A DNA stretch of 64,000 nucleotides from an uncultured Methanomicrobiales archaeon (GCA_964551875.1 CAZKEV010000004.1:3398-67397), one strand, 5' to 3'; counted from the first letter of the stretch, positions 18,655 to 48,668 are shown. The notes: generated from the letters alone by a model not told the origin. Made by a program: numbers and translations.

Positions 18655-19119
18655 ATGTTCTTATCATTTATTGATCGCGCAAAGAGGCAATATTATAAAC
18701 TCGTCCTGATTATTGGAAATTTTGGGCTAAAAAAATCTAAATTCCTTCTCAAATATTGCTTTGATGAAGGACTTTTTTATTATAATCTTAATCTCGAACT
18801 GAGTAAACGCTTGATTGGAATTCCATCTGACCATCGAATCTCATCAATTGAAACAACGGTGGGAGAGGTCCTCCAATCGAATCCAGGGAATTCCCTAGTC
18901 CTTGATCATATCGAACTACTTTATGTGAGAGAATTCTGTCTTCAACCCTTACAACTTCTCAAAACGCATAGTAGGAATAAAGTAATTATCGTTGCGTGGA
19001 ATGGTGAGTATGATGGAAAGAAACTAACGTATGGTAAAAGTGGCGATGAAGAATATCAGGAGTATGTAAGAGATGAGCTTAAAGGCATAGAAATTGTTCG
19101 AATCGAGGATCTGGAGTGA
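18655..19119 (+). CDS. brxF: BREX type 3 small P-loop-like protein BrxF
   Basis: 154-aa first gene of the operon, in the position and of the size of BrxF. P-loop-like LIIGNFGLKKSKF. Confidence 0.6.
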   Translation: MFLSFIDRAKRQYYKLVLIIGNFGLKKSKFLLKYCFDEGLFYYNLNLELSKRLIGIPSDHRISSIETTVGEVLQSNPGNSLVLDHIELLYVREFCLQPLQLLKTHSRNKVIIVAWNGEYDGKKLTYGKSGDEEYQEYVRDELKGIEIVRIEDLE

Positions 19120-19123
19120 GATA

Positions 19124-22813: not shown

Positions 22814-25422
22814 TCGAAACGACAGAAAAAAAGGAATACCGTCTCACGAAAGAAATCCTCGACCAGATGCGGACCATCAAAGGATTTCCCCTCGGTAAAG
22901 ACGAAGATATCATCGCACTCTCTGATCCACTGTATTATACCGCATGTCCGAACCCGTGGATTGGCGAGTTCATCAAAGAACATGGGAAATCCTACGATCC
23001 AGCGACCGATACCTACCAGCGGGAGCCGTTTGCCGCCGATGTGAGCGAAGGTAAGAACGATCCGATTTACAATGCCCATTCTTATCACACAAAGGTCCCG
23101 CATAAAGCCATTATGCGGTATATCCTGCACTACACCGAACCTGGCGATATCGTCTTCGATGGATTCTGCGGGACCGGGATGGCCGGCGTTGCAGCACAGC
23201 TCTGTGGGAATCCGGACCCAGAATTTAAAGAACAGATCGAGCGGGAAATGCCGTACATAAAATGGGGTGTACGAAAGGCGATACTCAATGATCTCTCCCC
23301 AGCGGCGACGTTCATAGCGTACAACTACAACACCCCGGTTGATGTTGTGAAATTAGAACGCGAGGCAAAACGTATCATTGCTGAAGTCGAGAGAGAATGC
23401 GGTTGGATGTATGAGACACCGCATCTGGTGGACGGTAAACCAATATTAACGGAAGAAATTGACGGAGCAAAACGACAGGTGAAAGGACGGATCAATTTCA
23501 CTGTATGGAGTGACGTATTCATCTGCCCCTCATGTGCCAAAGAGATGACCTTTTGGGAAGTTGCTGTGGATCTCGAGCATGGTCAGATGCTTGATGAATT
23601 CCACTGCCCTCACTGCGATGCATCTGTAACAAAACGGAGTCTTGAACGGGCACGAGAATCTGTCTTTGATGATGCACTCCAAACTACTATTAAAAGGGCA
23701 AAACAGGTGCCAGTGCTCATTAATTACAGCGTTCAGGACGTTAAAGGGAAATGGAAGCGTTTTGAGAAAACACCGGATGAAACTGATTTTACGTTAATTA
23801 AAAAAATTGAGGAGAAGAAAATACCGTACTGGTATCCAACCAACAGGATGCCAGAGGGTGATGAATCCCGAAGAAATGATGATATTGGAATAACCCATGT
23901 GCATCATTTTTATACAAAAAGAAATTTATGGATATTATCAACACTATTCCAAAAAGTTTTATCATTTGATAAGGAGATCGGCAGAAAAATATTGTTTGCA
24001 TTCAATAATGTTCAGCAAAGACATTGCAAAATGAACGCTTTCCGATTTAATGTTTCTTTTCCTTCAAATATTACGAGTGGAACGTTATATGTCGCATCCC
24101 TTATGCGTGAAAGTAATTTTTTTGATCAACTGGAGAATAAAATTCTTAGAAGATTACTTCCAATTTTTCGAGAGAAATCATATTCCAAAGAGAATTTTGT
24201 AATCGAAACTAATAGTGCACAATTCACTAAACCGCAGAGAAATTCCATCGATTACATCTTTGTCGATCCCCCCTTCGGCGGAAATCTCATGTATTCTGAG
24301 CTGAACTTTCTCTGGGAAGCGTGGCTCAAAGTCTTTACCAACAACCAGCAAGAAGCACTCGTTAATACCGCCCAGCGGAAAGGATTGGCCGAATATCAGC
24401 ACATCATGGAGGAATGTTTCAAAGAGTTCTACAGTATTCTCAAACCCGGACGCTGGATGACCGTAGAATTCCATAATTCTCAGAATTCTGTCTGGATGGC
24501 GATTCAGGAGGCGCTCTCCCGTGCCGGTTTTGTTGTCGCTGATGTCCGCACGCTTGATAAGAAACTGGGTACGTTTAAGCAAGTAACTTCAAAAGGGGCG
24601 GTCAAGCAGGACCTCATCATCTCCGCCTACAAACCAAACGGCGGGCTGGAGGAGCGGTTCAAGCTCACCGCAGGCAAAGTTGAGGGTGTCTGGGATTTTG
24701 CCCGGCAACATCTGAAGCACCTGCCCGTTGTGGTTGAGAAGGACGGTGTGCTCCAGGTTGTCGCGGAACGGCAACCCCATCTCCTCTTTGACCGGATGGT
24801 GGCTTTCCATGTCCAGCGGGGTGTAATCGTGCCGATATCAGCCGGTGACTTTTATGCCGGACTCCGGCATCGTTTCCCAGAGCGGGATATGATGTACTTC
24901 CTTGAACAGGAGGCATTGGAGTACGATAAGAAAAGGATGATCGCAAAGCGTGTAGAGCAGACCTCGCTTTTCGTCCACGATGAGAAGAGTGCTGTCCAGT
25001 GGCTCCAGACCGAACTCACCGATCACCCGCAGACATATCAGGATATCCAGCCGAAGTTTCTCCAAGAGCTGCACCAGGATAAGTTCGAGAAACTACCGGA
25101 GCTTTCTGAAATATTAAATGAAAATTTCCTGCAGGACGCTTCTGGCAAATGGTATGTGCCGGACCCGAACAAGCAAGCAGATTTAGATAAAATACGGGAG
25201 AAGGCGCTCCTCAGGGAATTTGAGGAGTACAAAGTGACGAGAGTGAAACTCAAGATGTTCCGCACTGAAGCGGTCCGAACGGGATTTAAAAAATGCTGGT
25301 CAGAACGTGATTATGCAACGATTATCGCCATCAGCGAACGACTGCCGCTTCAGATACTCCAGGAAGATCCGGATCTCTTGATGTACTATGACAATGCGGT
25401 GACGAGGGCCGTTTCAAAATAA
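22810..25422 (+). CDS. pglXI: BREX type 3 DNA methyltransferase PglXI (N6/N4 MTase family)
   Basis: FDGFCGTGMAG (SAM motif I) and IFVDPPFGGN (motif IV, DPPF). GTG start overlaps the brxC stop (GTGA). Confidence 0.8.
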   Translation: MIETTEKKEYRLTKEILDQMRTIKGFPLGKDEDIIALSDPLYYTACPNPWIGEFIKEHGKSYDPATDTYQREPFAADVSEGKNDPIYNAHSYHTKVPHKAIMRYILHYTEPGDIVFDGFCGTGMAGVAAQLCGNPDPEFKEQIEREMPYIKWGVRKAILNDLSPAATFIAYNYNTPVDVVKLEREAKRIIAEVERECGWMYETPHLVDGKPILTEEIDGAKRQVKGRINFTVWSDVFICPSCAKEMTFWEVAVDLEHGQMLDEFHCPHCDASVTKRSLERARESVFDDALQTTIKRAKQVPVLINYSVQDVKGKWKRFEKTPDETDFTLIKKIEEKKIPYWYPTNRMPEGDESRRNDDIGITHVHHFYTKRNLWILSTLFQKVLSFDKEIGRKILFAFNNVQQRHCKMNAFRFNVSFPSNITSGTLYVASLMRESNFFDQLENKILRRLLPIFREKSYSKENFVIETNSAQFTKPQRNSIDYIFVDPPFGGNLMYSELNFLWEAWLKVFTNNQQEALVNTAQRKGLAEYQHIMEECFKEFYSILKPGRWMTVEFHNSQNSVWMAIQEALSRAGFVVADVRTLDKKLGTFKQVTSKGAVKQDLIISAYKPNGGLEERFKLTAGKVEGVWDFARQHLKHLPVVVEKDGVLQVVAERQPHLLFDRMVAFHVQRGVIVPISAGDFYAGLRHRFPERDMMYFLEQEALEYDKKRMIAKRVEQTSLFVHDEKSAVQWLQTELTDHPQTYQDIQPKFLQELHQDKFEKLPELSEILNENFLQDASGKWYVPDPNKQADLDKIREKALLREFEEYKVTRVKLKMFRTEAVRTGFKKCWSERDYATIIAISERLPLQILQEDPDLLMYYDNAVTRAVSK

Positions 25423-25544
25423 TATGGGACGGAAGGATCCGTTTCATGAATTCAAACTACGTATTACTCCAGCTCAAGGTTTTTAACGGGATGTTTATGA
25501 TATGGAATCGACCAATCGAAATATAACAATCCCCATTTTCCTCT

Positions 25545-28187
25545 ATGCCCCCAAAAAATCACATAGATCCCGGTACATGGCTCTGGAGTACCATGTACCA
25601 TGAGACCGTTCAGCTCATAAATTCAAATGAAATCGGAGACCAGATCTATTATCGGGTTTGGGTTCCGGGAAAAAATGATGTACTCATTAGGTCTTCATCA
25701 GAATTTTTACCAATTGATCAGGCAACACCTTTATCGAGAGAGGAAATTATTTATCGTGCTGCCGCAGGGAAGGTCGCTGAAGCCCTCGCCCAGAACCCTC
25801 TCATCTCCCCTCTTTGTTCTGACGTGATCCCGCTTCCGCACCAGATCCATGCTCTCTCCCGAGCCATGCAGAAAGAGAAGGTCCGATATCTCCTTGCGGA
25901 TGAGGTCGGTCTGGGGAAGACCATTGAAGCTGGATTGGTCATTAAAGAACTCAAAATCAGGAAGAGAATCAAACGCACCCTCATTCTGGCGCCAAAAGGA
26001 CTGGTCCGGCAATGGATCGAGGAGATGCGCCAGAAATTTAGTGAGGATTTCAAACTCCTCCTCCCCGACAGTGCTGAAAAGCTCACGGGCAGCGATGCGG
26101 ATATCTGGCACCTCTTCGATCAGGTTGTTGTTTCCCTTGACTCGGTCAAACCATTGCGGTACCGAAGAGGATGGACGACACAGGAGATTGAGCAGTATAA
26201 CCAAGCACGATTCAAGAACCTCATCACAGCGGGGTGGGACCTAATCATCATCGATGAATCCCATAAACTGGCCGGAACAAGTACACAGGTAGCACGGTAC
26301 CGGTTGGGGAAAGGACTTGCATCAGCCGCTCCCCATCTCCTCTTGCTGTCTGCAACTCCTCATCAGGGGAAAACGGATGCATTTCTGCGGCTCATGAGTT
26401 TCCTTGACAAAAAGACCTTCCATGATGCCATGGAAGTTTCTCGGGATTTGGTTGCTGAATACGTCATAAGGACAGAGAAACGAAAAGCAATCGATGTTCA
26501 CGGTCAGCCGCTCTTCAAACCCCGACATACCCAAATGATGGCGATTACATGGAGCGCTGAACATGGACTCCAGGAGGACCTCTATCGCAAAGTCACAGAG
26601 TACGTCAGGTCAGGTTATAACAAAGCACGATCCGAGAATCGGAATTATATCGGCTTCCTTATGGTGCTCATGCAGCGACTGGTCTCCAGCAGCACCCGAG
26701 CGGTACGGATTGCCCTTGAGCGGCGGTTGTCTATTCTTTCCCCGTCGTTGCCTCATAGAAAACCTTCATGCCAGATTGATGAAGACTGGTGGGACTTGGA
26801 TGCGGAAGAGCGGGTTGCGATGCTTCTCTCTTGCGTGCCTCCCGCCTTTCGGGAAGAGTCCAATACAGTCAAAGATCTACTTGCGCTGGCCCGTAAATGT
26901 GAGTCAACCAGGCCGGATGCCAAAGCTGAGGTGCTCAATGATCTCCTTCATAAGGTTCGTTCAAAGGAGAACAATCCTGATCTAAAATTCCTGATATTTA
27001 CCGAATTTGTCACAACCCAGGAGATGCTCATGGAATTCCTTATCGGCCATGGGTTTTCTGTCGTATGCCTGAATGGATCAATGAGTATTGAAGATCGCCG
27101 AGTGGCCCAACAACAGTTCGCCGAGCAGGCCCACGTGATGATCTCAACCGAAGCGGGAGGCGAAGGACTCAACCTCCAGTTCTGCCATATTGTCATCAAT
27201 TACGATATTCCCTGGAATCCCATGCGTCTTGAACAACGGATCGGTAGAGTTGACCGGATCGGGCAATCACATGAAGTCGAGGTGATTAATTTCCTCTTTT
27301 CCGGGACCGTTGAAGAGCGGGTCCATCAAATCCTCGTCGAGAAGTTAATGGTCATACTTCAGGACCTCGGATTTGACAAAATTGGTGATGTCCTCGACTC
27401 TGGTGAGGCAGAACGAAGCTTTGAGGATTTATACCTCCATGCAATACTTGAACCGGAGAAAGCGGAAGAGCGGCTGAATACCTTCATTTCGCATATCCAG
27501 GAACAAGCGAAAGACGAGTGTTCATCCCTAAAAATGCTCGGATCTGAAAATACACTCAGTACCCATGATGCGCGAGAATATTCCCAATCGCTCCTTCCTT
27601 TCTGGCTTGAAGCAATGGTGACGCACTACCTCACTTCCCGTGGTGGTACAGTGGGACGCGGTCTTTTCGGATATAATCTCGTGTTCCCCGATGGATACTC
27701 CATGAACAAGGTATCATTCACTCATAGTGACCCGGAATCGTCAGGAACTCAGATAATCAACCTCTCAAATCGGAGAATAGCCCAGATCTTTCGCGAGATT
27801 CCCTACAATCATCCTGAACAACCAATAGCATATACCGTAATCACAGATCTTCCGAGAGATATCCGAGGTACCTGGTCACTCTGGCGTTTTGAGGTTTATG
27901 GAGAGAATGCTGATGCCGTCTATTATTTTCCCTATTTTATGACTTCCGAAGGAAAAGTGCTGATCACAACGGCAAAGACCATCTGGGAATCCTTGGCAAG
28001 GGGAAATTTCTCCTTCAACTCATCACAAAAGACCAAGAATATTAATGGAAAAAACATTGAAATTGAAATAAAGAAGAGAAGTGAAGAGATATTATCGGAA
28101 GGGAGAACTCGGCAAGAAATAACTGCTATCGATTATTATCCGGTCCTTATCGTTAAGGTGGGAGGTGCAGATAGTGAACTGGCGTGA
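25545..28187 (+). CDS. brxHII: BREX helicase BrxHII (SNF2/DExH superfamily 2)
   Basis: LLADEVGLGKTIEAG, IIIDESHKL, ISTEAGGEGLNLQ, WNPMRLEQRIGRVDRIGQ. Confidence 0.8.
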   Translation: MPPKNHIDPGTWLWSTMYHETVQLINSNEIGDQIYYRVWVPGKNDVLIRSSSEFLPIDQATPLSREEIIYRAAAGKVAEALAQNPLISPLCSDVIPLPHQIHALSRAMQKEKVRYLLADEVGLGKTIEAGLVIKELKIRKRIKRTLILAPKGLVRQWIEEMRQKFSEDFKLLLPDSAEKLTGSDADIWHLFDQVVVSLDSVKPLRYRRGWTTQEIEQYNQARFKNLITAGWDLIIIDESHKLAGTSTQVARYRLGKGLASAAPHLLLLSATPHQGKTDAFLRLMSFLDKKTFHDAMEVSRDLVAEYVIRTEKRKAIDVHGQPLFKPRHTQMMAITWSAEHGLQEDLYRKVTEYVRSGYNKARSENRNYIGFLMVLMQRLVSSSTRAVRIALERRLSILSPSLPHRKPSCQIDEDWWDLDAEERVAMLLSCVPPAFREESNTVKDLLALARKCESTRPDAKAEVLNDLLHKVRSKENNPDLKFLIFTEFVTTQEMLMEFLIGHGFSVVCLNGSMSIEDRRVAQQQFAEQAHVMISTEAGGEGLNLQFCHIVINYDIPWNPMRLEQRIGRVDRIGQSHEVEVINFLFSGTVEERVHQILVEKLMVILQDLGFDKIGDVLDSGEAERSFEDLYLHAILEPEKAEERLNTFISHIQEQAKDECSSLKMLGSENTLSTHDAREYSQSLLPFWLEAMVTHYLTSRGGTVGRGLFGYNLVFPDGYSMNKVSFTHSDPESSGTQIINLSNRRIAQIFREIPYNHPEQPIAYTVITDLPRDIRGTWSLWRFEVYGENADAVYYFPYFMTSEGKVLITTAKTIWESLARGNFSFNSSQKTKNINGKNIEIEIKKRSEEILSEGRTRQEITAIDYYPVLIVKVGGADSELA

Positions 28188-30096
28188 ACCGCTCCTGAAA
28201 AGAATTCTATCGACTGATTCACGCCTCGTCATTCTCCTGGATCCCGATAACCTCCTTCCCGACGAAAGATTTGCCGAGGAGATCCGCAAGTCCCAATACG
28301 ATATTCTTACTTATCGAGACCCAATTGATTTTCGATTCCACTATGAATCCGATTACCGCAGTAAATGGGACAGAGATGAGGCTATCGGAAAGAAATTGCT
28401 CGTTACATTTCAGTCAGCGGATGCCGCTTCGGTTCCTGTGGATCTCAAACATGAAGGAACGGTACTGAAGATCACCATATCAGACGTTTTTCCGCTGTTC
28501 AATCCATTAATCCTAGAACAAATTGGAATCTCGTTATTTGATGAAATCTCCACAAAATGCCAATTTTCGGGAAAAGAAAAACTGAGCGAATCGAATACAC
28601 AAGAATTGATACTTAAATGCCTCTACGGAATTGAGCCTGACCAAATTACAACTTCAATACTATTTATTATCAAACTCTGCACCATTCACAATCAAAACCA
28701 GGAGATTCCAGCCATTCTGTGCGATTATATTGTAAACAAAATAAAACAACAAGTTCAATTAGAAAATATACCTCTTCGTCAATTATTTGACCGAAATTAC
28801 TTCTTCTCGTTTCTTCAGGGGCAATGGGGGCCTTATCTAAGATCAATTCTTGACGAATCCGTACCCGTTATCCCGTTTCATGATCCATCAATTCGGGTTT
28901 TTATTGATACATTCTTCTTTGACGGTCTCCTCCAGCCAATAGAATGTGAGCAATACTCCAGGCTTCCCCAATGGACTTTGTGTGGTGTGAAGATAGATCC
29001 ATTCAATGACGCAAAACGACGAATTGAAGGATTAATGGGATTGCTTGATGGTCATCTACCGGATACCAATGCCAATTACAAAGAATGGATACGTGCGGCA
29101 TGGCGATGGGCAGAAGTAATTTGTCTCTATTCTGGCTTTAAAAAGGAAAAATTGGATAGCACCCTTGATGTGAGGATAAAAAAAATCCATGCTGAAATTG
29201 AAGCTAACTTTGAAAAATGGGTCAAAGATAATTTCAGATCTTTACAGAACACTCCATATCTCCCAAAGCCGGTGGTTGTTCATCATATCGTTCACTACCT
29301 CGCAGCACAATCGAAAAAGAAAATTGCTCTTCTCATCCTCGACGGGCTTGCTCTCGATCAGTGGACATTGATCCGACAGGACCTCCGATCTTCGTTTCGT
29401 TTTGAGGAGGAAGCTCTCTTCGCGTGGGTACCTACCCTCACTTCGATATCCCGCCGTGCAATCTTTTCTGGAGAGAACCCCTACGCTCTTGATGTTTCCC
29501 TTGAGGATTATGAGAGCGAAAGGCGCTTCTGGAATCATTTCTGGATGTCTCATGGCTACAAGGACAATGAAATTGCGCTCATAAAGGCTCTTAAATTCAA
29601 TGATTCGGAAGAAATCGAAGAAATTCACAATATTCAAAATAAACATGTGCTCGGCATCGTCATCAATACAATAGATGATCTCCTGAAAACTTCAGATATT
29701 ACCACATCGGACCTTCACCAGTTTGTAAAAAATTGGATAAACAAGGGACATTTTGTTCGCTTCATACAGAAATTATCGACTTGGGGCTTCGAGGTTTATA
29801 TCAGTTCCGACCACGGAAATATCTGCAGTATAGGGATCGGAAATATTCGTGAGGGAGTATTAGTTGAAGAGAAAAGTGCCAGGGCGAAGATTTATCAAAA
29901 TACTCAATTGAGAGATCGTGCATACAGAGAGATTGGAGAGGGGATACCATATGATGACCCAGATTTTAATTATGCAGTATTACTTTCAGAAGGCCTGGCG
30001 GCATTTTATAAAGAAGGAGTAAAAATCATCTCTCACGGGGGAATATCCCTCGAGGAAATGGTTGTTCCATTTATTGCGATACATAGGGATGAGTAA
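28165..30096 (+). CDS. pglZ: BREX alkaline-phosphatase-superfamily protein PglZ
   Basis: LLILDGLALDQW and YISSDHGN motifs. 643 aa. Overlaps the brxHII end. Confidence 0.8.
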   Translation: MQIVNWREPLLKRILSTDSRLVILLDPDNLLPDERFAEEIRKSQYDILTYRDPIDFRFHYESDYRSKWDRDEAIGKKLLVTFQSADAASVPVDLKHEGTVLKITISDVFPLFNPLILEQIGISLFDEISTKCQFSGKEKLSESNTQELILKCLYGIEPDQITTSILFIIKLCTIHNQNQEIPAILCDYIVNKIKQQVQLENIPLRQLFDRNYFFSFLQGQWGPYLRSILDESVPVIPFHDPSIRVFIDTFFFDGLLQPIECEQYSRLPQWTLCGVKIDPFNDAKRRIEGLMGLLDGHLPDTNANYKEWIRAAWRWAEVICLYSGFKKEKLDSTLDVRIKKIHAEIEANFEKWVKDNFRSLQNTPYLPKPVVVHHIVHYLAAQSKKKIALLILDGLALDQWTLIRQDLRSSFRFEEEALFAWVPTLTSISRRAIFSGENPYALDVSLEDYESERRFWNHFWMSHGYKDNEIALIKALKFNDSEEIEEIHNIQNKHVLGIVINTIDDLLKTSDITTSDLHQFVKNWINKGHFVRFIQKLSTWGFEVYISSDHGNICSIGIGNIREGVLVEEKSARAKIYQNTQLRDRAYREIGEGIPYDDPDFNYAVLLSEGLAAFYKEGVKIISHGGISLEEMVVPFIAIHRDE

Positions 30097-30822
30097 ATGT
30101 CGAAACGGATAGGCTTTGACCGATATATTACCATAGAATGGCTCGACATGATAGCAGGATTGCTACAACATGAGAATGACATCAATAAAATCAGAGCATC
30201 AATGCATTCGTACCTCGAAAAAGAACTTCCTCATTACGAGAGTCGAAAAAAAACTATCTCCATTCTTTTACGAATTTGGTATAAGGTTCCTGATGAATAT
30301 AGGCCCCTACGAGATAGGGCCATAAAGATCCTTTCTACAGCATCCCAAGAAGATCGTATCTGGATCCACTGGGGAATGACACTTCTTGCTTTTCCATTCT
30401 TTAGAGATATTATAACATGGTTGCATCGATGTTTTACTTTGCATGATCATTGCACTATGGGCGAGGTACATCGGAAAATTGAGGAATCATGGGGCTATCG
30501 CACAACAATGAAACCTGCCATAAGAAAAGTGATTCAATCTCTTATTTTATGGGGCGCAATAGATAAAAATTTAAATTCGCATGTTATTACCAGAAAGAAA
30601 TCCTTTGCCGCATCAATAAAAGAAATAGAATTTTGGTTTTTATATGCAATTCTAGCTTCTGAAAATTCTCATTCGATACCTGTTGAGCGTATGAATAATA
30701 TTCCAGCCGCGTTTCCTTTTTTACTGACTATAAATCCCTCTGACCTCGTAAAATCAGAGAATTTTTCCTTACAAATGGTTGGTGGAAAAACAGAGATTGT
30801 TCTAACAGAAGAAAATGTGTAA
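30097..30822 (+). CDS. brxA: BrxA-like (DUF1819-type) protein, last gene of type 3 BREX
   Basis: 241 aa, starts the nucleotide after the pglZ stop. Called from position and size in the type 3 gene order. Confidence 0.6.
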   Translation: MSKRIGFDRYITIEWLDMIAGLLQHENDINKIRASMHSYLEKELPHYESRKKTISILLRIWYKVPDEYRPLRDRAIKILSTASQEDRIWIHWGMTLLAFPFFRDIITWLHRCFTLHDHCTMGEVHRKIEESWGYRTTMKPAIRKVIQSLILWGAIDKNLNSHVITRKKSFAASIKEIEFWFLYAILASENSHSIPVERMNNIPAAFPFLLTINPSDLVKSENFSLQMVGGKTEIVLTEENV

Positions 30823-30932: not shown

Positions 30933-31583
30933 ATGCGCTCCCTCCTCATCCTCAGCGGCGGTGTCGACAGCACAACTCTATTGTATGATCTCAGAAGCCA
31001 GGGCTACGAAGTAGAGGCAATCACCTTCGACTACGGCCAGAAGCACAAGAAAGAGATTGAGTTCGCGAGGAAGACCTGCAAGAAACTGAATGTACCCAAT
31101 ACCGTCCTGGATCTCAAGATCTTAAACGAGGTCGCCCCGTCCAGTTTAACAAGAAACAATATCGAAGTCCCCGAAGGGCACTATACCGAGGAGTCGATGA
31201 AGGCGACCGTGGTCCCGAACAGGAACATGATCTTCCTCTCCCTCGCGGCGGCCCGGGCCATCGCGGGCGGCATCCCGCACCTCTTCTACGCGGCCCACTC
31301 GGGGGACCATGCCATCTACCCGGACTGCAGGCCGGTCTTTGTGAGCGCCATGGAGACGGCCCTCCACCTCTGCGACTGGACCGATATCACGCTCCATGCC
31401 CCGTACCTCCACCTCACCAAGGCCGATATCGTGAAGCTGGGCACCGGGCTCGGAGTCGATTACTCCCTCACCTGGACCTGCTACCGGGGAGAGGCCCTCG
31501 CCTGCGGGAAGTGCGGCTCCTGCACGGAGCGGCTCGAGGCGTTCAGGGAGGCGGGAGTGGAGGACCCGGTGGAGTACGGGTGA
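30933..31583 (+). CDS. queC: 7-cyano-7-deazaguanine synthase QueC (full-length copy)
   Basis: LILSGGVDSTT PP-loop, NRNMIFLS, and C-terminal zinc-site CYRGEALACGKCGSCTERLEAFREAG. Confidence 0.9.
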   Translation: MRSLLILSGGVDSTTLLYDLRSQGYEVEAITFDYGQKHKKEIEFARKTCKKLNVPNTVLDLKILNEVAPSSLTRNNIEVPEGHYTEESMKATVVPNRNMIFLSLAAARAIAGGIPHLFYAAHSGDHAIYPDCRPVFVSAMETALHLCDWTDITLHAPYLHLTKADIVKLGTGLGVDYSLTWTCYRGEALACGKCGSCTERLEAFREAGVEDPVEYG

Positions 31584-31652
31584 GGAAGGCGAATAAAAGA
31601 AGATTGCCAGTCACGGTGGTACGAGGGGTTTAAGGCGGAAGGATGAAACGGC

Positions 31653-32096
31653 TCATTCCCCGGGTCCTGTCTTTTCCAGGAGTTTTTCCATGCGGGTGAG
31701 GAAGGCGTGAGCACCCCTGACGGCGGATTCCACCTCCTCGCGTGAAGGGGCCGCCGAGAAGGAGTACTGGTCCATGTGGCGGGCGCTCCTCATCCTGCTG
31801 AACTGCGCAATCCATGTCGGTTCAAGAGCACCCCGTGCGGCGTACGAGCCGAGATAGAGCTCGACGCAGATATGGCTCTTCTCCCTGACGCCGTCCCGGT
31901 AGAGGATTGCCCGGGCGGCATGGAAGAAGGCATTGTAGCAGGAGATCAGAGAAGACCGGTTGGCACCGGCAACCAATGCCTTCTTCGCCTCCTCCTGCCA
32001 GACGCGGGACTGCTCCAGGGATCGCCTCGCCTTGGCCAGGGAAGGCTCGACCCTCCGTAACAGGTCCTTTGCGTAGCACTCTTCAAGCGAGGTCAA
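31653..32096 (-). CDS. HEPN domain protein
   Basis: CYNAFFHAARAILY and RSARHMDQY motif. Overlaps the upstream NTase gene by 14 nt. Confidence 0.75.
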   Translation of the reverse strand: MTSLEECYAKDLLRRVEPSLAKARRSLEQSRVWQEEAKKALVAGANRSSLISCYNAFFHAARAILYRDGVREKSHICVELYLGSYAARGALEPTWIAQFSRMRSARHMDQYSFSAAPSREEVESAVRGAHAFLTRMEKLLEKTGPGE

Positions 32097-32697
32097 AGCC
32101 CTTTCCCCTGAGCACGATGGCCGATCTCATGAAGGCGTGGTAGAAAGGGGGATCCTCCCTCTCCAGGTCCCCGAGTTTCTGGGGAGACAGGAAGAGGAGA
32201 TGGACCTCCACCCCGAGATTCCCGGTCAGGATTGAGATGAGCTCCCCCAGGGAAGCCTCACCGGGATAGTTCCTCGCGAATACCCAGAGATCCAGGTCGC
32301 TTCCCCTGGTATTCGTGCCCGTGGCCCAGGACCCGTACATGCCAATCCCATCTGCCCACCCCGGCAGGGATATCACGGGCATGAGCCGATCCAGGTTCAG
32401 GAGGATCTTCACCGCCCTTGTGAGAGATCCATCTGCGGGCCGGTAAGATCGGCCTTCCCGGCTAAGAAGCCCGTGCCTGACAAGGAGGGGGAGATACCGG
32501 GAGACGGGGGCTTTTGAGAGGCCGGTAGCCCTGGAGAGAGACTGGACCGTGGAGGAGGGCTCAGAGAGGGCCTGCCGGAGGATCGAGACCCGCCCTTCAG
32601 TGCTGAACAGTTCGGAGAGCACAGATGATCTCTTTGTCCCCGGAAGATAAAAAATTGTTTCCATACAAGCAACGAATCGTTGCTCTATCAGCAACAA
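32083..32697 (-). CDS. wHTH-fused nucleotidyltransferase (MNT-type)
   Basis: LSRATGLSKAPVSRYLPLLVRHGLL (wHTH) plus MYGSWATGTNTRGSDLDLWV (NTase). The true start may be Met12 (METIFYL, 32664), just downstream of a palindrome. Confidence 0.7.
   Translation of the reverse strand: MLLIEQRFVACMETIFYLPGTKRSSVLSELFSTEGRVSILRQALSEPSSTVQSLSRATGLSKAPVSRYLPLLVRHGLLSREGRSYRPADGSLTRAVKILLNLDRLMPVISLPGWADGIGMYGSWATGTNTRGSDLDLWVFARNYPGEASLGELISILTGNLGVEVHLLFLSPQKLGDLEREDPPFYHAFMRSAIVLRGKGFDLA
32668..32684. promoter_or_regulatory. perfect palindrome AGCAACG-AAT-CGTTGCT just upstream of the probable start of the wHTH-NTase gene
   Basis: Read directly. A further AGCAA half-site follows at ~32690. Confidence 0.4.
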
Positions 32698-32740
32698 TAT
32701 GTTTCTTGAACGGCAACGGGCCCTGATGCTCCGGGGAGGG

Positions 32741-32954
32741 CAACTGGACCGATATCACCCTCCATGCCCCGTACCTGCACCTCACCAAGGCCGATATCGT
32801 GGAGATCGGCGCGAGGCCCGGGGTCGACTACTCCCTTACCTGGACCTGCTACCAGGGAGAGGAACGAGCATGCGGGAAATGCGGGGCCTGCACCGAGAGG
32901 ATCGAGGCGTTCAGGGAGGCGGGGGTGAGGGACCCGGTGGAGTACTCAGATTAA
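32741..32954 (+). pseudogene. queC 3'-end fragment 1
   Basis: Encodes WTDITLHAPYLHLTKADIVEIGARPGVDYSLTWTCYQGEERACGKCGACTERIEAFREAGVRDPVEYSD*. No 5' part is present. Confidence 0.8.
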
Positions 32955-32979
32955 TAAGATCCACAAGAGCGTATTGAAT

Positions 32980-33330
32980 TCAGGTGTTTCCTGCGGGACG
33001 CAGGATATTCTCAATTTTTTCCTTCAGGTCAGGAATGTCTTTCTGGATGGTCTCCCACACAGCCTCGTAATCAACACCGAAATAATGATGGATGAGCTTG
33101 TCCCTCGTCCCTGCGGCCTTTTTCCACGGGATGGCAGGGTGATTCTCCTTGAATTCACTGGAAATATTCTTTGCTGCTTCACCGATGATGGTGAGCATCC
33201 TCTCGATACCTGCTCTTTCCAGGGGCCTGTCCTTCAGGTCTCCCGCTGAAGTAATGCTCCTGGAGAAATCCTCTATCTGGAGGATCGCGTCGTACATGTG
33301 CTGTATATAGGCGCGATCCCTCTGGTTCAT
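32980..33330 (-). CDS. hepT: HepT (DUF86/HEPN) toxin
   Basis: RDKLIHHY (Rx4HxY HEPN motif). 4-nt overlap with the upstream MntA-type gene. Confidence 0.85.
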   Translation of the reverse strand: MNQRDRAYIQHMYDAILQIEDFSRSITSAGDLKDRPLERAGIERMLTIIGEAAKNISSEFKENHPAIPWKKAAGTRDKLIHHYFGVDYEAVWETIQKDIPDLKEKIENILRPAGNT

Positions 33331-33623
33331 CCCAGGATCACCACTTCATCATGCCGGACCGAATCGATGAGGTAGGGGCTTACCGCCTTTTCGGTAAGGA
33401 GGTCCACCTTGAGGTGCAGAGCTTGTTCAAGCTCCTCTTCGATTCCTACAAGGTCGAAGAGGCTCTTAGGTTGGGCAAACCTGACGAGGATATCGATGTC
33501 GCTCCCCGGGCCTGCTTCCCCTCGTGCATAGGATCCAAAGACCGCGACTCTCCGGACCCCGTGGGGTTTCAGGATCCTGAGAATGGTCTCCTTCACTTCC
33601 CCTTGAAGCCGTTTACCGGTCAT
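33327..33623 (-). CDS. mntA: MntA-type nucleotidyltransferase antitoxin
   Basis: VAVFGSYARGEAGPGSDIDILV. Confidence 0.85.
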   Translation of the reverse strand: MTGKRLQGEVKETILRILKPHGVRRVAVFGSYARGEAGPGSDIDILVRFAQPKSLFDLVGIEEELEQALHLKVDLLTEKAVSPYLIDSVRHDEVVILG

Positions 33624-33635
33624 GTGAGAACCGTC

Positions 33636-33923
33636 CTATGCATAGACGACCTCCGAAAGAATCGGTTCCCTCAGACGGGGCTTGATAGCTCCCTTCATCA
33701 CAAGATCCACCTTCCGGCCAAAGAGGTCCTCGAGGTAGAACTTCAGATCAATGTAGTGATCGAAGTTCTTCTCCCCTTCCCGGAACTCCACGAGGACATC
33801 TACATCACTCTCGGGCTTCTCCTCTCCCCGCACGAACGATCCGAAGATCCCGATCCGTTCCACTCCGAACCGGTTCCTGATCTCCTGCTCATGCTCGCGG
33901 AGGAGCGAGAGGGGAATTGTCAT
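33636..33923 (-). CDS. second minimal nucleotidyltransferase (orphan, upstream of mntA-hepT)
   Basis: IGIFGSFVRGEEKPESDVDVLVEF. Confidence 0.8.
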   Translation of the reverse strand: MTIPLSLLREHEQEIRNRFGVERIGIFGSFVRGEEKPESDVDVLVEFREGEKNFDHYIDLKFYLEDLFGRKVDLVMKGAIKPRLREPILSEVVYA

Positions 33924-34057
33924 CGATCTCTGTTTAGGTTCTCCCGCTTTTTATAGGTATAGTGTTAAATGCAACGCGATTCGAGAGTAGAATCATTTAA
34001 CACGACTGGAGAAGATCCAGAGGGTCTTTGATTGTAAGGGCGGTCATCACGAGGAAT

Positions 34058-34384
34058 ATACCGCACCTCTTCTACGCGGCCCACTCGGGGGACCATGCCA
34101 TCTACCCGGACTGCAGGCCGGTCTTTGTGAGCGCCATGGAGACGGCGCTCCACCTCTGCGACTGGCACGACGTCACCCTCCATGTCCCGTACCTGCACCT
34201 CACCAGGGCCGATATCGTGAAGATCGGCACCAGGCTCGGGGTCGACTACTCCCTCACCTGGACCTGCTACCGGGGAGAGGCCCTCGCCTGCGGGTTGTGC
34301 GGCTCCTGCACGGAGAGGCTGGAGGCGTTCAGGGAGGCGGGGGTGGAGGACCCGGTGGAGTACGCGGATTCGAAAGTGGAATAG
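34058..34384 (+). pseudogene. queC 3'-end fragment 2
   Basis: Encodes ..PHLFYAAHSGDHAIYPDCRPVFVSAMETALHLCDWHDVTLHVPYLHLTRADIVKIGTRLGVDYSLTWTCYRGEALACGLCGSCTERLEAFREAGVEDPVEYADSKVE*. Homology to the full gene starts abruptly at ~34058. Confidence 0.8.
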
Positions 34385-34400
34385 GAAGAAGAATGTCTCA

Positions 34401-34853
34401 TCAGGGAGAAGTTTTCCCGTAGCCCTTCCCGGTCAGGTGGGAAAAGACGATCTGGTTGATCTGTTCTGCATCCCTGACGGTTCCTTCGGCGGAGGCTTGT
34501 CCATACGTTAAACCATAATCGGCAGATTCGCGGGCAGTTTTCGCGTTCCGGATATCGGTAACAAGAGAGGCGGGCAGCAGCCCTTTATCGGTGAAAAGTT
34601 CCTCGATGGCAGCGATGAGGCAGTCATGGCTCTTTTCGGTATATCCGACGCTGAATAACAATGATTTGAAGGCATGGAACATGGAATAATACGCCTTGAT
34701 GATGGTCCATTTATAGTCGGGTTCCCCGAGGGATCTCTTTGCTGATTCGAGATCTTTCTCTGCTTCTCTCATCTCGGCTTCAATGTCTCTGGTATTGACA
34801 GGGATTTTTCGTAAACCCCGCTTGCTGATACAATTACGAAATTTATAGGACAT
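34401..34853 (-). CDS. HEPN domain protein
   Basis: AYYSMFHAFKSLLF and ARESADY motif. Paralogous in layout to 31653..32096. Confidence 0.75.
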   Translation of the reverse strand: MSYKFRNCISKRGLRKIPVNTRDIEAEMREAEKDLESAKRSLGEPDYKWTIIKAYYSMFHAFKSLLFSVGYTEKSHDCLIAAIEELFTDKGLLPASLVTDIRNAKTARESADYGLTYGQASAEGTVRDAEQINQIVFSHLTGKGYGKTSP

Positions 34854-34856
34854 GTT

Positions 34857-35381
34857 TTACCCTTTCAGGATAATTCCCTGTGAAATATTGTCAAACAGGA
34901 TTTTATCCTTTGTTTTTAATCGGTATGTCTCATCCGGCGTACTGATCAACGGAGACATCTCTCTCGTAATCTTTCTCTGGTGCCTGGCGAGGATCTTCTG
35001 GACCGCATCCTTGTCTTGCGTTTCGAGAAAGAGATCAATATCGCTCTCATAGGTATCTTCTCCCTTTGCGCAACTGCCATAAAGGATGGAGTTCGTTGTT
35101 ACCTGGTCAAGATCCCTGATAAGATCGGTCAACTCGAGAAGTGTGAGACAGATTTTCATATGCCTGAGAAGTACGCTCTTCATATTCGCCTGATAAAAAA
35201 CGAGATTCCCCACGTCTTCATGGGTTACCAGCCCCACCTCTTCCAGCTGCTTCAGATTTTTACTGATCATCGAGACGTCGTAGTTTAAAGATCTCGCCAG
35301 GTCCCTCACGTGGAACTTATTTGAGTAATTTCTGCCCAGACCGGCTAGTAAAATCAATGATGATCTCCGAAATAATTTCAT
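34857..35381 (-). CDS. wHTH-fused nucleotidyltransferase (MNT-type)
   Basis: VRDLARSLNYDVSMISKNLKQLEEVGLV (wHTH) plus ILYGSCAKGEDTYESDIDLFLE. I chose the start at Met68 of the track ORF by alignment to the paralog at 32083..32697. Confidence 0.7.
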   Translation of the reverse strand: MKLFRRSSLILLAGLGRNYSNKFHVRDLARSLNYDVSMISKNLKQLEEVGLVTHEDVGNLVFYQANMKSVLLRHMKICLTLLELTDLIRDLDQVTTNSILYGSCAKGEDTYESDIDLFLETQDKDAVQKILARHQRKITREMSPLISTPDETYRLKTKDKILFDNISQGIILKG

Positions 35382-35516
35382 GTATGGAACGAAGAAATCC
35401 GATCGGGCGCTAAATTGGTTTTGCCCATTGTATTCTCCTTGAATCCCTGGTTTTTGTCTCCTGTTTCTTGATGGGCGCTCGTCCAGGCTGCCTTTTTGGG
35501 GGTGCTTGCCCAGTGT

Positions 35517-35579
35517 TTGTTGATTTATATTCAACAATTGTTGACTCTTATTCTTCATGTGTTGACTATAAGTCAACAC
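35517..35579. promoter_or_regulatory. cluster of GTTGA-type palindromes: TTGTTGA-N7-TCAACAA (35517..35537) and GTGTTGACT-ATA-AGTCAACAC (35559..35579)
   Basis: Read directly. The first spacer is TATA-like (TTTATAT). Upstream of the wHTH-NTase gene. Confidence 0.5.
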
Positions 35580-35639
35580 CACCCTATAAATCTTCGGGTA
35601 AAATCTCTCCTCTTCCCAAGGATGTGGAGAACCGTCCTA

Positions 35640-35883
35640 TGTCAGCGCCATGGAGACGGCGCTCCACCTCTGCGACTGGACCGACATCACCCTCCATGCC
35701 CCCTACCTGCACCTCACCAAGGCCGATATCGTGAAGCTCGGCACCGGGCTCGGGGTCGACTACTCCCTCACCTGGACCTGCTACCGGGGAGAGGCCCTCG
35801 CCTGCGGGTTGTGCGGCTCCTGCACGGAGCGGCTGGAGGCGTTCAGGGAGGCGGGGGTGGAGGACCCGGTGGAGTACGGGTGA
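35640..35883 (+). pseudogene. queC 3'-end fragment 3
   Basis: Encodes (S)AMETALHLCDWTDITLHAPYLHLTKADIVKLGTGLGVDYSLTWTCYRGEALACGLCGSCTERLEAFREAGVEDPVEYG*. One amino-acid difference from the full copy over this span. Confidence 0.85.
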
Positions 35884-35908
35884 TCCAGGATCCGAGGGAA
35901 CAAGAGAA

Positions 35909-36130
35909 ATGACATCTCCAATCGAGGAAATCACGGTCAAATGTCCCAGATGCGGCAGGGAATACCAGGACTGGTACCGGCCCTCGGTCAACCTGGCACT
36001 CGACGATTTTGACGAGGAATACCTCGACGAATGTTCAAGCGCCACATGCCCATTCTGCCGGTTCAAGGTGCATATCGATACCCTGCTCGTCGATAAGAAT
36101 GGAATTTTTCACTTCGGGGGATCGGAGTGA
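35909..36130 (+). CDS. small zinc-ribbon protein
   Basis: CPRCG....CPFC pairs in a 73-aa ORF. Confidence 0.5.
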   Translation: MTSPIEEITVKCPRCGREYQDWYRPSVNLALDDFDEEYLDECSSATCPFCRFKVHIDTLLVDKNGIFHFGGSE

Positions 36131-36201
36131 AGGAATGCGGATTATCCTCAAGGTAATCTCAACCCTCATATAGAGCATCGCTCCAATCCTGATATTGACC
36201 A

Positions 36202-36525
36202 TTGATGAGGAACAGGCAGTACCCTTTGGGGAGACCTTCTCTTGAAGAGATCCAGGCCATCCTCCGCGAGCACCTTCCGGAGCTGAGGCGGGAGTATGGA
36301 GTCAGATCCCTCGGGATCTTTGGTTCCTATACCCGCGGGAATGCAAAGAAGCGGAGCGACCTGGATATCCTCGTCGAATTCGAGAGGATCGGGACGCTCC
36401 TCGAATATATCCGGCTGGAAGACACCCTCACCGATCTCCTTGGTGTAAAGGTTGACCTGATTGACAAATCCACTCTGAAACAAGGTATCAAGGCCCGGAT
36501 CCTGCGTGAAGCCATCCCGGTATGA
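36202..36525 (+). CDS. minimal nucleotidyltransferase (MntA-type), no intact HEPN partner
   Basis: LGIFGSYTRGNAKKRSDLDILVEF. Confidence 0.8.
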   Translation: MMRNRQYPLGRPSLEEIQAILREHLPELRREYGVRSLGIFGSYTRGNAKKRSDLDILVEFERIGTLLEYIRLEDTLTDLLGVKVDLIDKSTLKQGIKARILREAIPV

Positions 36526-36569
36526 AAGCCGGTAGAAATTACCGGATTTTGGCATCCTGGAGTTCAATC

Positions 36570-36848
36570 TTACACTCCGATAACCGTGAAGAACTTCTCT
36601 CGTGATTTGAGAACAGGGCTGATATCCTCGAGTGTCCCGTACTCTTCGGCATTCTTCAGGTATAGCTCAATAGCCTCCCGAATGTTTTCCAGGGCTTCCG
36701 AAGGTGTATCTCCGCAGCTCGTAACTTCCAGTTCAGCGCATTTTGCGACGTAGGTATTTTCTTCGTTCCATATGGCGACAGTAAAATAATAAGGACCCAT
36801 ACCCTCTTCACCGGATGGTTGCATTCTCTCTCCGATACTATAGCGCAA
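36570..36848 (-). CDS. HicB-like (UPF0150) antitoxin-type protein
   Basis: YYFTVAIWNEENTYVAKCAELEVTSCGDTPSEALENIREAIELYL matches the HicB N-terminal domain pattern. The start is probably an internal Met (36824 or 36800). Confidence 0.6.
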   Translation of the reverse strand: MRYSIGERMQPSGEEGMGPYYFTVAIWNEENTYVAKCAELEVTSCGDTPSEALENIREAIELYLKNAEEYGTLEDISPVLKSREKFFTVIGV

Positions 36849-36928
36849 TTCTATCCTCAGGATTCCGAGAGCAAAATACCTCCTGAAACTCGGGTAAAGG
36901 TGTAATGCATGCTCCTTTCCTCGGGGAT

Positions 36929-36969
36929 TGTTGACTCGTTTTCAACATTTGTTGATCATCAGTCAACAA
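36929..36969. promoter_or_regulatory. two palindromes TGTTGA-N7-TCAACA (36929..36947) and TTGTTGA-N7-TCAACAA (36949..36969)
   Basis: Read directly. Same half-site and spacing as 35517..35537. Confidence 0.5.
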
Positions 36970-37019
36970 TCTGGCGAGGGATAACTTTCCTTTTTATACT
37001 GTAACCCGGGAGCAATGGC

Positions 37020-37316
37020 TTATGCATATTCGACCTCTGAAAGTATCGGCTCACGGAGGCGGCGCTTGATGGTGTCCTTCATCACGAGGTCCACCTTCCG
37101 CCCGAACATGTCTTCAAGGTAGAACTTCAGGTCCATGTAATGATGAAAAGTCCCTTCCCCGTCTTTGAATTCCACGAGGACATCCACATCGCTCTCCGGC
37201 TTCTCTTCTCCTCTTACGAAGGACCCGAAAATTCCAATCCGTTCCACACCAAACCTGTCCAGTATCTCCTGCTTATGCACCCGGAGGAGTGAAAGGGGAG
37301 CAATCCCAGAATTCAT
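37020..37316 (-). CDS. minimal nucleotidyltransferase (paralog of 33636..33923)
   Basis: IGIFGSFVRGEEKPESDVDVLVEF. Highly similar to the 33636 protein over its length. Confidence 0.8.
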   Translation of the reverse strand: MNSGIAPLSLLRVHKQEILDRFGVERIGIFGSFVRGEEKPESDVDVLVEFKDGEGTFHHYMDLKFYLEDMFGRKVDLVMKDTIKRRLREPILSEVEYA

Positions 37317-37609
37317 TCCAGGATCACCACTTCTTCGCGCCGTATTATATCGATGAGGTACGGGCTTACTGCTCCTTCGGTGACGAGGTCAACCTTACGA
37401 TGGAGTGCCTGTCCAAGTTCATCCTGGATGCGGACGAGTTCGAAGAGGCTCTTTGGATCCTTGAACTTGACGAGGATATCGATATCGCTCCCGGGACCCG
37501 CTTCACCACGTGCAAAGGATCCAAAAACCGAAACCCTCGCAACGCCGTGCGGCTTCAGCATTCTGAGGATGATCTCCCGAATATCCCCTGGAAGCCGTAA
37601 ACCATTCAT
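37313..37609 (-). CDS. minimal nucleotidyltransferase (paralog of mntA 33327..33623)
   Basis: VSVFGSFARGEAGPGSDIDILV. 4-nt overlap with the downstream NTase gene. Confidence 0.8.
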   Translation of the reverse strand: MNGLRLPGDIREIILRMLKPHGVARVSVFGSFARGEAGPGSDIDILVKFKDPKSLFELVRIQDELGQALHRKVDLVTEGAVSPYLIDIIRREEVVILE

Positions 37610-37982
37610 CTCTCTTCACCCTGTCCCAGTAGCGGCGGTGGGGTCTTGTTCTCCCTCTTGCAGAAGGAATACCCCTCCGTATGTAAAGATTCGCCTTCTT
37701 CCGTGAAAATGTCTCTTCTGTTCGCGAACAGGGTTCGGGATTGGAAGTCGAGAAAAACAGGAAAAAAGATTCGGAACCTGACCCTCGGCACCTCCCGCTC
37801 CCGGAGGTTCACCTCCATGGTCCAGACCACGCCTTCCCGTGGGCGACCCGGAACATGGCGATCTTGCTTCCCAGCTTGGCGTTCTCTATGATGTCCCCGC
37901 TCCAAGAAATCGGGAACAGCACCATCCGGTACAAAGCTAACCTTTATCACATTTCTCTCTAATCTTTACTCAAAACTTAAAG

Positions 37983-48624: not shown

Positions 48625-48668
48625 AAGATGGCGTCCGCGTCATCCCCGTCCTTCCAGGGCTGGTCCAT
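48625..48668. repeat. 44-nt direct repeat, copy 2 (orphan 5' gene end next to the CNNM gene stop)
   Basis: AAGATGGCGTCCGCGTCATCCCCGTCCTTCCAGGGCTGGTCCAT. Encodes MDQPWKDGDDADAIF on the minus strand and then diverges. Confidence 0.9.

Follow-up and report, generated by a model that had tools for sequence, protein, structure and literature searches.

The entry of toxin-antitoxin and defence modules into chromosomes without mobile-element genes is an open question, especially in archaea, where MNT-HEPN modules are extremely abundant. Here, a 64,000-nucleotide stretch from an uncultured Methanomicrobiales archaeon (GCA_964551875.1 CAZKEV010000004.1:3398-67397), referred to below as the window, is described, in which an intact queC gene is followed by three further queC 3' ends separated by cassettes of nucleotidyltransferase (NTase) and HEPN genes. 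Together with a twin array at a HAD hydrolase gene of the same window and the variable arrays of related genomes, this locus represents an unusually readable record of insertion order, donor divergence and later erosion, since each insertion left the previous gene-end allele behind.

The queC array

The array is made up of the intact gene, three displaced 3' fragments (F1 to F3) and three cassettes, where wHTH stands for winged helix-turn-helix; the cassette genes were assigned by Pfam and the tails are those preceding each stop.

30933..31583, + strand: intact queC, 216 aa, Pfam QueC over the full length (E 4.6e-70), tail YG
31584..32739, - strand: cassette 1, with HEPN (31653-32096, -) and wHTH-NTase (32083-32697, -)
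32740..32954, + strand: queC 3' fragment F1, queC nt ~440 to stop, tail YSD (blastn and alignment)
32955..34024, - strand: cassette 2, with HepT (32980-33330, -), MntA-type NTase (33327-33623, -) and a second NTase (33636-33923, -)
34025..34384, + strand: queC 3' fragment F2, strong homology from 34058 (queC nt 340), tail YADSKVE
34385..35631, - strand: cassette 3, with HEPN (34401-34853, -) and wHTH-NTase (34857-35582, -)
35632..35883, + strand: queC 3' fragment F3, queC nt ~400 to stop, tail YG

A blastn comparison of the full gene (30933-31583) with the 64 kb window returned exactly three further matches, all on the + strand: 32740-32945 (queC nt 440-645, 86%, E 2e-67), 34058-34364 (nt 340-646, 93%, E 5e-133) and 35637-35883 (nt 405-651, 94%, E 1e-108), the second of which was extended by tblastn to 34025 (aa 103). 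All three fragments remain open as far as a stop codon of their own (32954, 34384 and 35883, respectively). An array of one full gene and three same-strand 3' ends, each with its own stop, had been proposed in a preliminary description made from the sequence alone, and blastn and alignment bear it out; only the coordinates needed minor correction, to a start at 32740 for F1, about 34025-34058 for F2 and about 35632-35637 for F3.

In the four-way alignment the homology of all copies ends at ...CCGGTGGAGTAC (VEY), 1-7 codons before the stop of each copy, and the tails past this common end point are copy-specific. The DNA beyond the four stops is mutually unrelated, and the left ends of the fragments differ. 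The architecture is that of an intact target gene with displaced, directly oriented partial 3' copies flanking each module, the duplicated tracts of the queC type reaching at least 410 nt. The window QueC shares 92% amino acid identity with the protein P0001, and an exact-protein look-up with the window sequence found no record.

An assembly artefact is unlikely to lie behind the array, since the copies differ from each other at 6-14% of nucleotides, the longest exact matches between them are of only 24-86 nt and the joints between cargo and fragments have no k-mer in common. Moreover, a homologous array has been recovered identically from more than 10 independent samples and assemblers, and the segment from F2 through cassette 3 to F3 is collinear, at 78%, with a contig of another species (L170).

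An exact 15-nt direct repeat, CGGGTGAGGAAGGCG, spans the junction of the queC stop and cassette 1 (31577-31591) and recurs inside the cassette 1 HEPN gene (31693-31707), whereas chance alone would give about 0.04 repeats of this kind in the 9 kb region; the repeat may have been left by the formation of the junction.

The fragments as former working alleles

The divergence of the displaced copies is that of genes which had been under purifying selection, as judged by the ratio of non-synonymous to synonymous substitution rates (dN/dS). Over the last 201 nt (67 codons), F3 differs from the full copy by 11 nucleotides and one amino acid (dN/dS 0.06), and F1 by 27 nucleotides and nine amino acids (dN/dS 0.24). 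Taken together, the comparisons of fragments with the full copy gave values of 0.06-0.33, which we place in the same range as those between working queC genes of different genomes (0.25-0.44); the exception is the pair F2 and F3, with nine differences, nearly all in the 5' half, and a ratio of about 1. Since the differences are mostly synonymous and dN/dS resembles that of working genes, most of the divergence arose within functional genes. In fact, the fragments are former working alleles from different lineages and not products of decay in place, so that both the unequal divergence and the independent acquisitions put forward in the preliminary description hold.

Within the gene, a block of 86 nt (queC nt 355-440, window 31287-31372) is 84-98% identical between genomes, while the neighbouring parts of queC reach 69-91%, and in distant queC pairs the 3' third is more alike than the 5' part. 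Gene ends exchanged horizontally could give this pattern, and so could strong constraint by itself. A mosaic origin had also been argued from the exact identity of F2 and the full copy over 86 nt; the argument was dropped, because the block at nt 355-440 is highly conserved in all genomes.

Cargo of the cassettes

Each interval holds exactly one module of the NTase-HEPN type on the strand opposite to queC, as had been noticed before and as is confirmed by Pfam. The cassettes measure 1.1-1.3 kb, nearly all of which is taken up by two or three genes, and every cassette combines a Pfam NTP_transf_2/Polbeta domain with a HEPN or HepT-like protein encoded by adjoining or overlapping genes (overlaps of 4-14 nt in cassettes 1 and 2, a gap of 3 nt in cassette 3). 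In the translations the NTase motif GSx10DxD can be read as GSWATGTNTRGSDLD in cassette 1, GSYARGEAGPGSDID in cassette 2 and GSCAKGEDTYESDID in cassette 3. The HEPN motif Rx4-6H appears as RDKLIH in the HepT of cassette 2 and as RMRSARH in the HEPN of cassette 1; in the HEPN of cassette 3 (RNAKTARESADY) the motif His is missing, and the protein therefore departs from Rx4-6H. From these features the cargo is predicted to consist of MNT-HEPN (MntA/HepT-type) toxin-antitoxin modules.

All three cassettes carry 43-134 nt of upstream sequence of their own; unlike them, the first cassette of the relative L081 is co-oriented with queC. Their GC content is 0.60 against 0.44-0.49, the low value belonging to cassette 3 (0.44-0.49), and no nucleotide similarity between cassettes could be detected by self-comparison. 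The two NTase genes of cassette 2 (33326-33923) are paralogous to an NTase pair 3.4 kb downstream (37020-37609), with 76-78% nucleotide identity, and the distal gene of each pair also matches the HepT-paired NTase of the relatives L081 and L171 (87% and 77%, respectively, for the distal gene of cassette 2). As far as these similarities indicate, cassette 2 may be a composite. Cassette 1 matches the metagenome contig L180 at 95.7% nucleotide identity, where a longer queC fragment comes after it, and a similar module, at 76% identity, is found in the 2.2-kb contig L181, within which no queC sequence accompanies it.

Operator-like palindromic repeats, TTGTTGAC ... GTCAACAA, are present at 35516-35578, upstream of the cassette 3 wHTH-NTase gene, and a second set of this type lies at 36926-36971, between a DUF7387/HicB-like gene and the downstream NTase pair; both sets are probably autoregulatory sites of toxin-antitoxin modules.

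Variation among relatives

Exact-protein look-ups of QueC homologues were the main source of related loci, and a QueC scan of GTDB genomes and JGI metagenomes provided, among the matches listed, the useful loci L001, L002, L090-L092 and L098. The close relatives of the window QueC come only from uncultured peat and wetland Methanomicrobiales. The preliminary description had made its proposal depend on empty sites and on variation in cassette number among relatives, and both were found. In L001 (QueC 84% identical) the site is empty, the stop of a convergent PNPOx-like gene lying 10 nt after the queC stop, followed by genes for a P-type ATPase, a lipoprotein and pyruvate carboxylase. One cassette is present in L081-L090 (QueC 92%), where queC is followed by an NTase+HepT cassette, one frameshifted queC fragment and then HepT-NTase and DUF7387 genes, and also in L170 (QueC 81%), with queC, HEPN+wHTH-NTase and an 87-nt queC remnant. 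Three or more are found in the window and in L171 (QueC 81%), the latter reading queC, Fic, fragment A, HepT-NTase, fragment B, NTase, fragment C, DUF7387 and a fourth remnant. It is the L081-type array that was recovered identically from more than 10 independent samples.

The order of the cassettes also varies. The NTase(+) cassette stands after the intact gene in L081, after the third fragment in the window and after the second fragment in L171, and the order of the two common cassettes cN (NTase(+)) and cH (HepT-NTase) in L081 is the reverse of that in L171. The phenomenon does not extend beyond the clade with a QueC identity of at least 81%, and all fragments are 80-95% identical to the resident genes. 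No queC fragments occurred in relatives at 73% QueC identity or below, nor in about 160 distant bacterial and Methanoregula queC loci among the matches listed from GTDB and the JGI metagenomes.

The contigs of several relatives break inside queC, L001 starting at aa 28, L098 ending at aa 141 and L180 ending within the gene. Such breaks are expected of a repeated queC in short-read assembly, and the arrays are therefore probably under-represented in public assemblies.

Beyond F3, the window continues with older cargo and then with the native flank.

35884..37761, mixed strands: older distal cargo without surviving queC fragments (Pfam)
35909-36130, + strand: Zn-ribbon open reading frame (ORF)
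36202-36525, + strand: NTase
36570-36848, - strand: DUF7387/HicB-like
37020-37316 and 37313-37609, - strand: NTase pair
37762..37896, - strand: remnant of the PNPOx-like gene, the native downstream neighbour, recognized by its match to the empty-site relative L001

The segment 36136-36549 matches the first cassette after the full queC of L081 (85%) and the third cassette of L171 (85.5%). At the native flank, window positions 37762-37861 correspond at 85% to L001 571-671, and this match begins right after the L001 queC stop.

Growth at the intact gene and erosion of the fragments

The comparison with L170 gives the direction of growth. Positions 1114-2752 of that contig are collinear with window 34058-35741 (78%), a segment comprising the F2 tail, cassette 3 and the start of F3; the F2 tail (YADSKVE before the stop) and cassette 3 are thus orthologous to the tail of the intact L170 queC (YAGLNRE before the stop) and its cargo, the start of F3 corresponds to the L170 queC remnant, and each tail goes with the cargo to its right. 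It follows from this collinearity that two later units were inserted between the queC body and its former 3' end. Growth takes place at the intact gene, the older ends being shifted outward.

After insertion the displaced fragments were eroded. In L180, cassette 1 is followed by 116 nt of unique sequence and by a queC fragment from nt ~240, and the window joint of cassette 1 and F1 equals this arrangement minus about 312 nt, with a 2-nt microhomology. Furthermore, an indel of about 58 nt separates the F3 junction from its orthologue in L170, the L081 fragment is frameshifted, and fragments B and C of L171 have internal deletions. The left ends of the fragments fall at queC nt ~240, 305, 335, 357, 400, 400, 434, 434 and 441, and they are at least partly secondary. 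Since two or more of them are secondary deletions, the original crossover positions are unrecoverable, and the left ends speak neither for nor against a fixed site.

A second array at a HAD hydrolase gene

The same architecture is repeated upstream of queC, with a complete defence system filling the interval between the two arrays.

11496..12419, + strand: intact HAD hydrolase gene, head of the second array (Pfam; self-blast)
12419-14935: cargo of three ORFs, including secreted PT-rich proteins
14936..15293, + strand: HAD 3' fragment 1, HAD nt 567-924, 80%, own stop
15294-18079: cargo with NTase (15555-15875) and Fic (16803-17960)
18080..18484, + strand: HAD 3' fragment 2, HAD nt 518-922, 82%, own stop
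18655..30822, + strand: complete BREX type 3 system with BrxF, DUF6079/BrxC, methylase, SNF2 helicase, PglZ and BrxA (Pfam, PADLOC, NCBIfam)

Both HAD fragments lie on the same strand as the gene, and their homology ends at the stop codon. In the related locus L182 (HAD 69% identical in amino acids), the HAD gene is followed by a cassette with a small ORF and an S49-type protease, by a 449-nt HAD 3' fragment at 85.5% and by other defence genes. As the same build is found at HAD, both in the window and in L182, and with Fic and secreted-protein cargo, the gene-end-displacing architecture is specific neither to queC nor to MNT/HEPN modules.

The BREX type 3 region, with a GC content of 0.37-0.48, occupies the whole interval between HAD fragment 2 and queC. 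At the same position a Dnd phosphorothioation cluster is found in L081, and nuclease-like ORFs, judged by eye from sequence motifs only, in L171 and L170. Downstream of queC, a 44-nt direct repeat (44900-44943 and 48625-48668, 97.7%), which corresponds to the opening 44 nt of the Sm_multidrug_ex gene downstream, flanks a low-GC insertion of 3.7 kb with a CHAT-domain protein (45288-47939) and a 159-aa ORF, and the genes flanking this insertion are adjacent in L170. The whole of 12-40 kb is one large flexible island assembled by gene-end-duplicating insertions.

Search for recombinases and sites

ORFs of at least 70 aa, picked throughout the window, were compared with Pfam, and those without a Pfam match also with PADLOC and NCBIfam. 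No integrase, resolvase, recombinase or transposase domain was present in these ORFs. Neither integrase nor transposase appeared in the flanks retrieved for five related loci or in the precomputed Pfam lists of L081-L090, L170, L171 and L182. The unknown ORFs of the HAD cargo at 12419-14935, considered as hidden recombinases, proved to be secreted PT-rich proteins with no family matches.

In the window, a repeat search for the conserved core or inverted repeats that had been suggested for the cassette ends gave no inverted repeat or motif common to the cassette ends or boundaries, the queC coding fragment being all that they have in common, and no attC-like sites were found. As regards mobile carriers, a DNA pattern for the queC 3' fragment had 0 matches among virus and plasmid contigs, and the fragment protein matched only queC genes of up to 68% identity, all seven loci checked being full-length or near full-length.

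Origin of the array

Replacement of a gene's 3' end is a real and recurring mode of growth of defence and toxin-antitoxin islands. In the reading preferred here, to which a probability of about one half may be given, the locus is an additive island built by repeated insertions of this kind, probably through homologous recombination of the host, with subsequent erosion of the fragments. DNA of a related methanogen would arrive in which the distal few hundred nucleotides of queC are fused, at the stop codon, to a foreign module, and it would recombine with the resident gene within the queC homology; an intact hybrid queC would be rebuilt, and the old 3' end, together with all that lies behind it, would be displaced downstream. 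The 3' part of the present intact queC would have arrived with cassette 1. Repetition would stack the units, the newest adjoining the intact gene, and the displaced fragments would erode from their 5' side, while recombination between direct repeats would delete or reshuffle cassettes, mainly addictive toxin-antitoxin and defence cargo persisting. General homologous recombination of the host would most likely suffice, a dedicated recombinase being probably unnecessary, either by single-crossover (Campbell-type) integration of a circularised fragment or by one-ended invasion and end joining. In arrays already formed, a donor piece with a queC copy at either end could bridge directly and be added, excised or moved, which would explain the reshuffled cassette order.

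The duplicated tracts flanking the inserts measure 206-449 nt, with 80-94% identity and low dN/dS, and the copies are allelic variants. Homologous recombination is favoured since the process acts on at least two unrelated genes, requires no element-borne enzyme, is confined to close relatives and involves long tracts (up to at least 410 nt of queC and 449 nt of HAD), and since the conserved block at queC nt 355-440 provides a ready crossover block. The fixed right end would correspond to the junction of a conserved gene with strain-variable DNA. The dominance of MNT/HEPN modules would, in turn, be a matter of retention, addictive modules resisting loss by recombination between direct repeats of 200-400 nt. 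In this context, homologous recombination at the core genes on either side has been proposed as the means by which toxin-antitoxin islets without mobile elements spread (PMC13617665).

Several points weigh against recombination by the host. Recombination across 13-20% divergence is inefficient, and tandem displaced target-gene ends are the classical signature of integrase-mediated integration and accretion. All right ends lie at the stop codon, and the left ends cluster (two at about 400, three at about 434-442), so that preferred sites are possible. The CHAT insertion is flanked by repeats of only 44 nt, an att-like length at which homologous recombination would have little to work on. Variation is just as great upstream of queC, where displaced 5' fragments of the gene are nevertheless missing, an asymmetry not expected from a purely symmetric homology process. 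No queC tail adjoins the native flank at 37762, which leaves the first insertion at the empty site unexplained. Finally, a recombinase could be encoded outside the 64 kb.

The most serious competitor, which we consider doubtful and yet far from negligible, is integrase-mediated tandem accretion followed by decay, in the manner of cis-mobilizable elements (CIMEs), or mobilisation in trans. The phage-type attachment site (attP) would carry the replacement queC 3' end, and the elements would lose their integrase and leave a toxin-antitoxin module between att remnants; alternatively, integrase-less cassettes would be moved by a recombinase encoded elsewhere. Such a process matches the e14/icd case (PMC13626634), CIME accretion (PMC5704250) and the partial tRNAs of tycheposon islands (10.1101/2020.12.28.424599). 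It would also account for the preference for 3' ends, and it agrees with the coincident right ends, the partly clustered left ends, the att-like repeat around another recombinase-less insertion of the window and the ongoing deletion seen between L180 and the window. Nevertheless, among the cassettes of six genomes, at least 10 in number and located at two genes, there is none that keeps an integrase or a piece of one, not even among the units nearest the intact gene, and cargo genes take up the cassettes from one edge to the other. The targeting of two unrelated genes within a single window would require two specificities, the window junctions have no common core or arm-type repeats, no IMG/VR contig carries a queC 3' fragment, and the duplicated tracts (at least 410-449 nt) are well above att lengths such as tens of base pairs in integrative and conjugative elements, or ICEs, and in CIMEs and about 165 nt for icd. 

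A dedicated, integron-like capture of MNT/HEPN modules at the queC 3' end, as had been suggested in the preliminary description, is improbable: all three window cassettes and most of those in relatives are of the NTase/HEPN type, the array is polar and its order varies between genomes, but Fic is found as cargo in L171, secreted proteins and an S49-type protease occur at the HAD arrays, and the HAD gene shows the same architecture. Neither an integrase nor an attC-like element nor a conserved cassette end was found, the cassettes have their own promoter regions and lie on either strand, and the module resembling cassette 1 in L181 stands apart from queC. Even less credit can be given to a tandem duplication in place of the queC 3' end with its module followed by divergence, or to an assembly chimera of strain variants. 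The similar size of the units, the common domain architecture of cassettes 1 and 3 and the tendency of relatives' contigs (L001, L098, L180) to break inside queC could be cited in its favour; against it, the cassettes differ in GC (0.60 against 0.44-0.49) and have no mutual nucleotide similarity, the divergence of the fragments is largely synonymous, cassette 1 and the F2-cassette 3-F3 segment each have independent orthologues in other genomes, and the short exact matches, the unlike joints and the repeated recovery of the related array, given above, hold here as well.

Recombination by the host being the preferred reading, a bolder extension of it can be proposed tentatively, and with somewhat less confidence, namely that an integrase-free, homology-driven analogue of the integron builds defence and toxin-antitoxin islands in this archaeal clade. 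The 3' ends of housekeeping genes (queC, HAD) would act as portable recombination sites, and any DNA joined to one of them could be added by the host machinery; each event would swap in a foreign gene-end allele and leave the previous end as a dated fossil, and cassettes could be popped out, exchanged between species and reshuffled via the same repeats. If the process is homology-driven, it would represent a general, enzyme-free route of additive island growth, and the 3' ends of island-flanking genes are themselves predicted to be horizontally exchanged. If it is integrase-driven, an undescribed family of archaeal elements would target the ends of protein genes and decay to toxin-antitoxin-only remnants.

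Relation to known systems

By analogy, the locus would work like a 3'-end replacement of the e14/icd type combined with tandem accretion in the style of CIMEs and tycheposons. In Escherichia coli, e14 is flanked by icd and by the displaced C-terminal fragment icdC, the copies differing mainly by conservative or synonymous changes (PMC13626634). There, as with phage 21, a substitute 3' end comes in, a hybrid gene is formed and the original C-terminal fragment is displaced to the far side. In contrast to the present locus, however, e14 consists of one 15 kb element that encodes a site-specific integrase of its own and uses one short, defined site for crossover, whereas here three units of 1.1-1.3 kb are stacked, with no recombinase, with left ends that vary and with homology that reaches at least 410 nt.

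Accretion at the 3' end of a target gene has been described for ICEs, integrative and mobilizable elements and CIMEs, the last of which may lack integration genes, with decay by deletion (PMC5704250). ICESt1/ICESt3 and the CIMEs at fda of Streptococcus thermophilus resemble the queC locus in that elements are separated by gene-end repeats and growth takes place next to the gene end; they differ in their short, identical att cores, their known tyrosine integrase and the presence of intact ICEs at the same site, while the arrays described here have no integrase-bearing member in six genomes, an archaeal host and long, diverged coding repeats. In the tycheposon islands of Prochlorococcus, successive integrations push older elements inward and leave partial copies of the target gene (10.1101/2020.12.28.424599). 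Partial target-gene copies are scattered through a cargo-rich island in both cases, but tycheposons use tRNA and tmRNA targets, carry tyrosine recombinases and bring nutrient-acquisition cargo.

Integrons have in common with the queC array its polarity, its small, mostly one-operon cassettes enriched in toxin-antitoxin modules and the variation of their number and order between genomes. Nevertheless, the array lacks the defining features of an integron, since there is no IntI, attI, attC or common promoter Pc, and what separates the cassettes are repeated pieces of a housekeeping gene. The queC locus is also comparable to toxin-antitoxin islets and replacement islands acquired through homology, and a donor fragment with a partial repeat can reportedly generate duplications by alternative pairing, as in transformation-generated merodiploids. 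In these systems an interval is normally replaced or resident DNA is duplicated, whereas here each event adds a unit and leaves a fossil 3' end.

Both the replacement of gene ends, with displacement of a 3' fragment, and accretion in tandem have been described already, and literature searches gave no description of a queC-targeting or MNT/HEPN-specific array. What is new is the archaeal host, the protein-gene targets, the mini-cassettes of a single toxin-antitoxin operon, the long, diverged allelic repeats, the occurrence at two genes side by side and the apparent independence from an element-encoded recombinase.

Other features of the island and its relatives

An AT-rich element with three TACTAA repeats at a 10-nt phase, ending in the palindrome CTACTAA/TTAGTAG, occurs in L081 (10678-10711), in L171 (1352-1390, 1420-1458 and 5838-5876) and in the viral loci L269-L283, and is not present in the window. 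In the relatives it lies 25-95 nt after queC stops, ahead of differing cargo genes, and in 15 IMG/VR contigs of very different GC it is placed either beside the 3' ends of tRNAs or right behind genes for capsid or tail-tube proteins. It was considered as a set of integrase arm sites and rejected, no recombinase being adjacent in the 15 viral contigs, and it is evidence for neither mechanism.

Cargo paralogous to the CHAT insertion (70-77% nucleotide identity) is found at 50329-53559 and following, in the next intergenic gap (50033-54790), with no detectable flanking repeats. A tRNA or other non-coding RNA as the true insertion target was discarded, as the only tRNA gene of the window (43207-43317, - strand) is not at any array or insertion boundary. 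This gene, of 111 nt, was recognized by Rfam and not by ARAGORN, is conserved in relatives and probably contains an intron.

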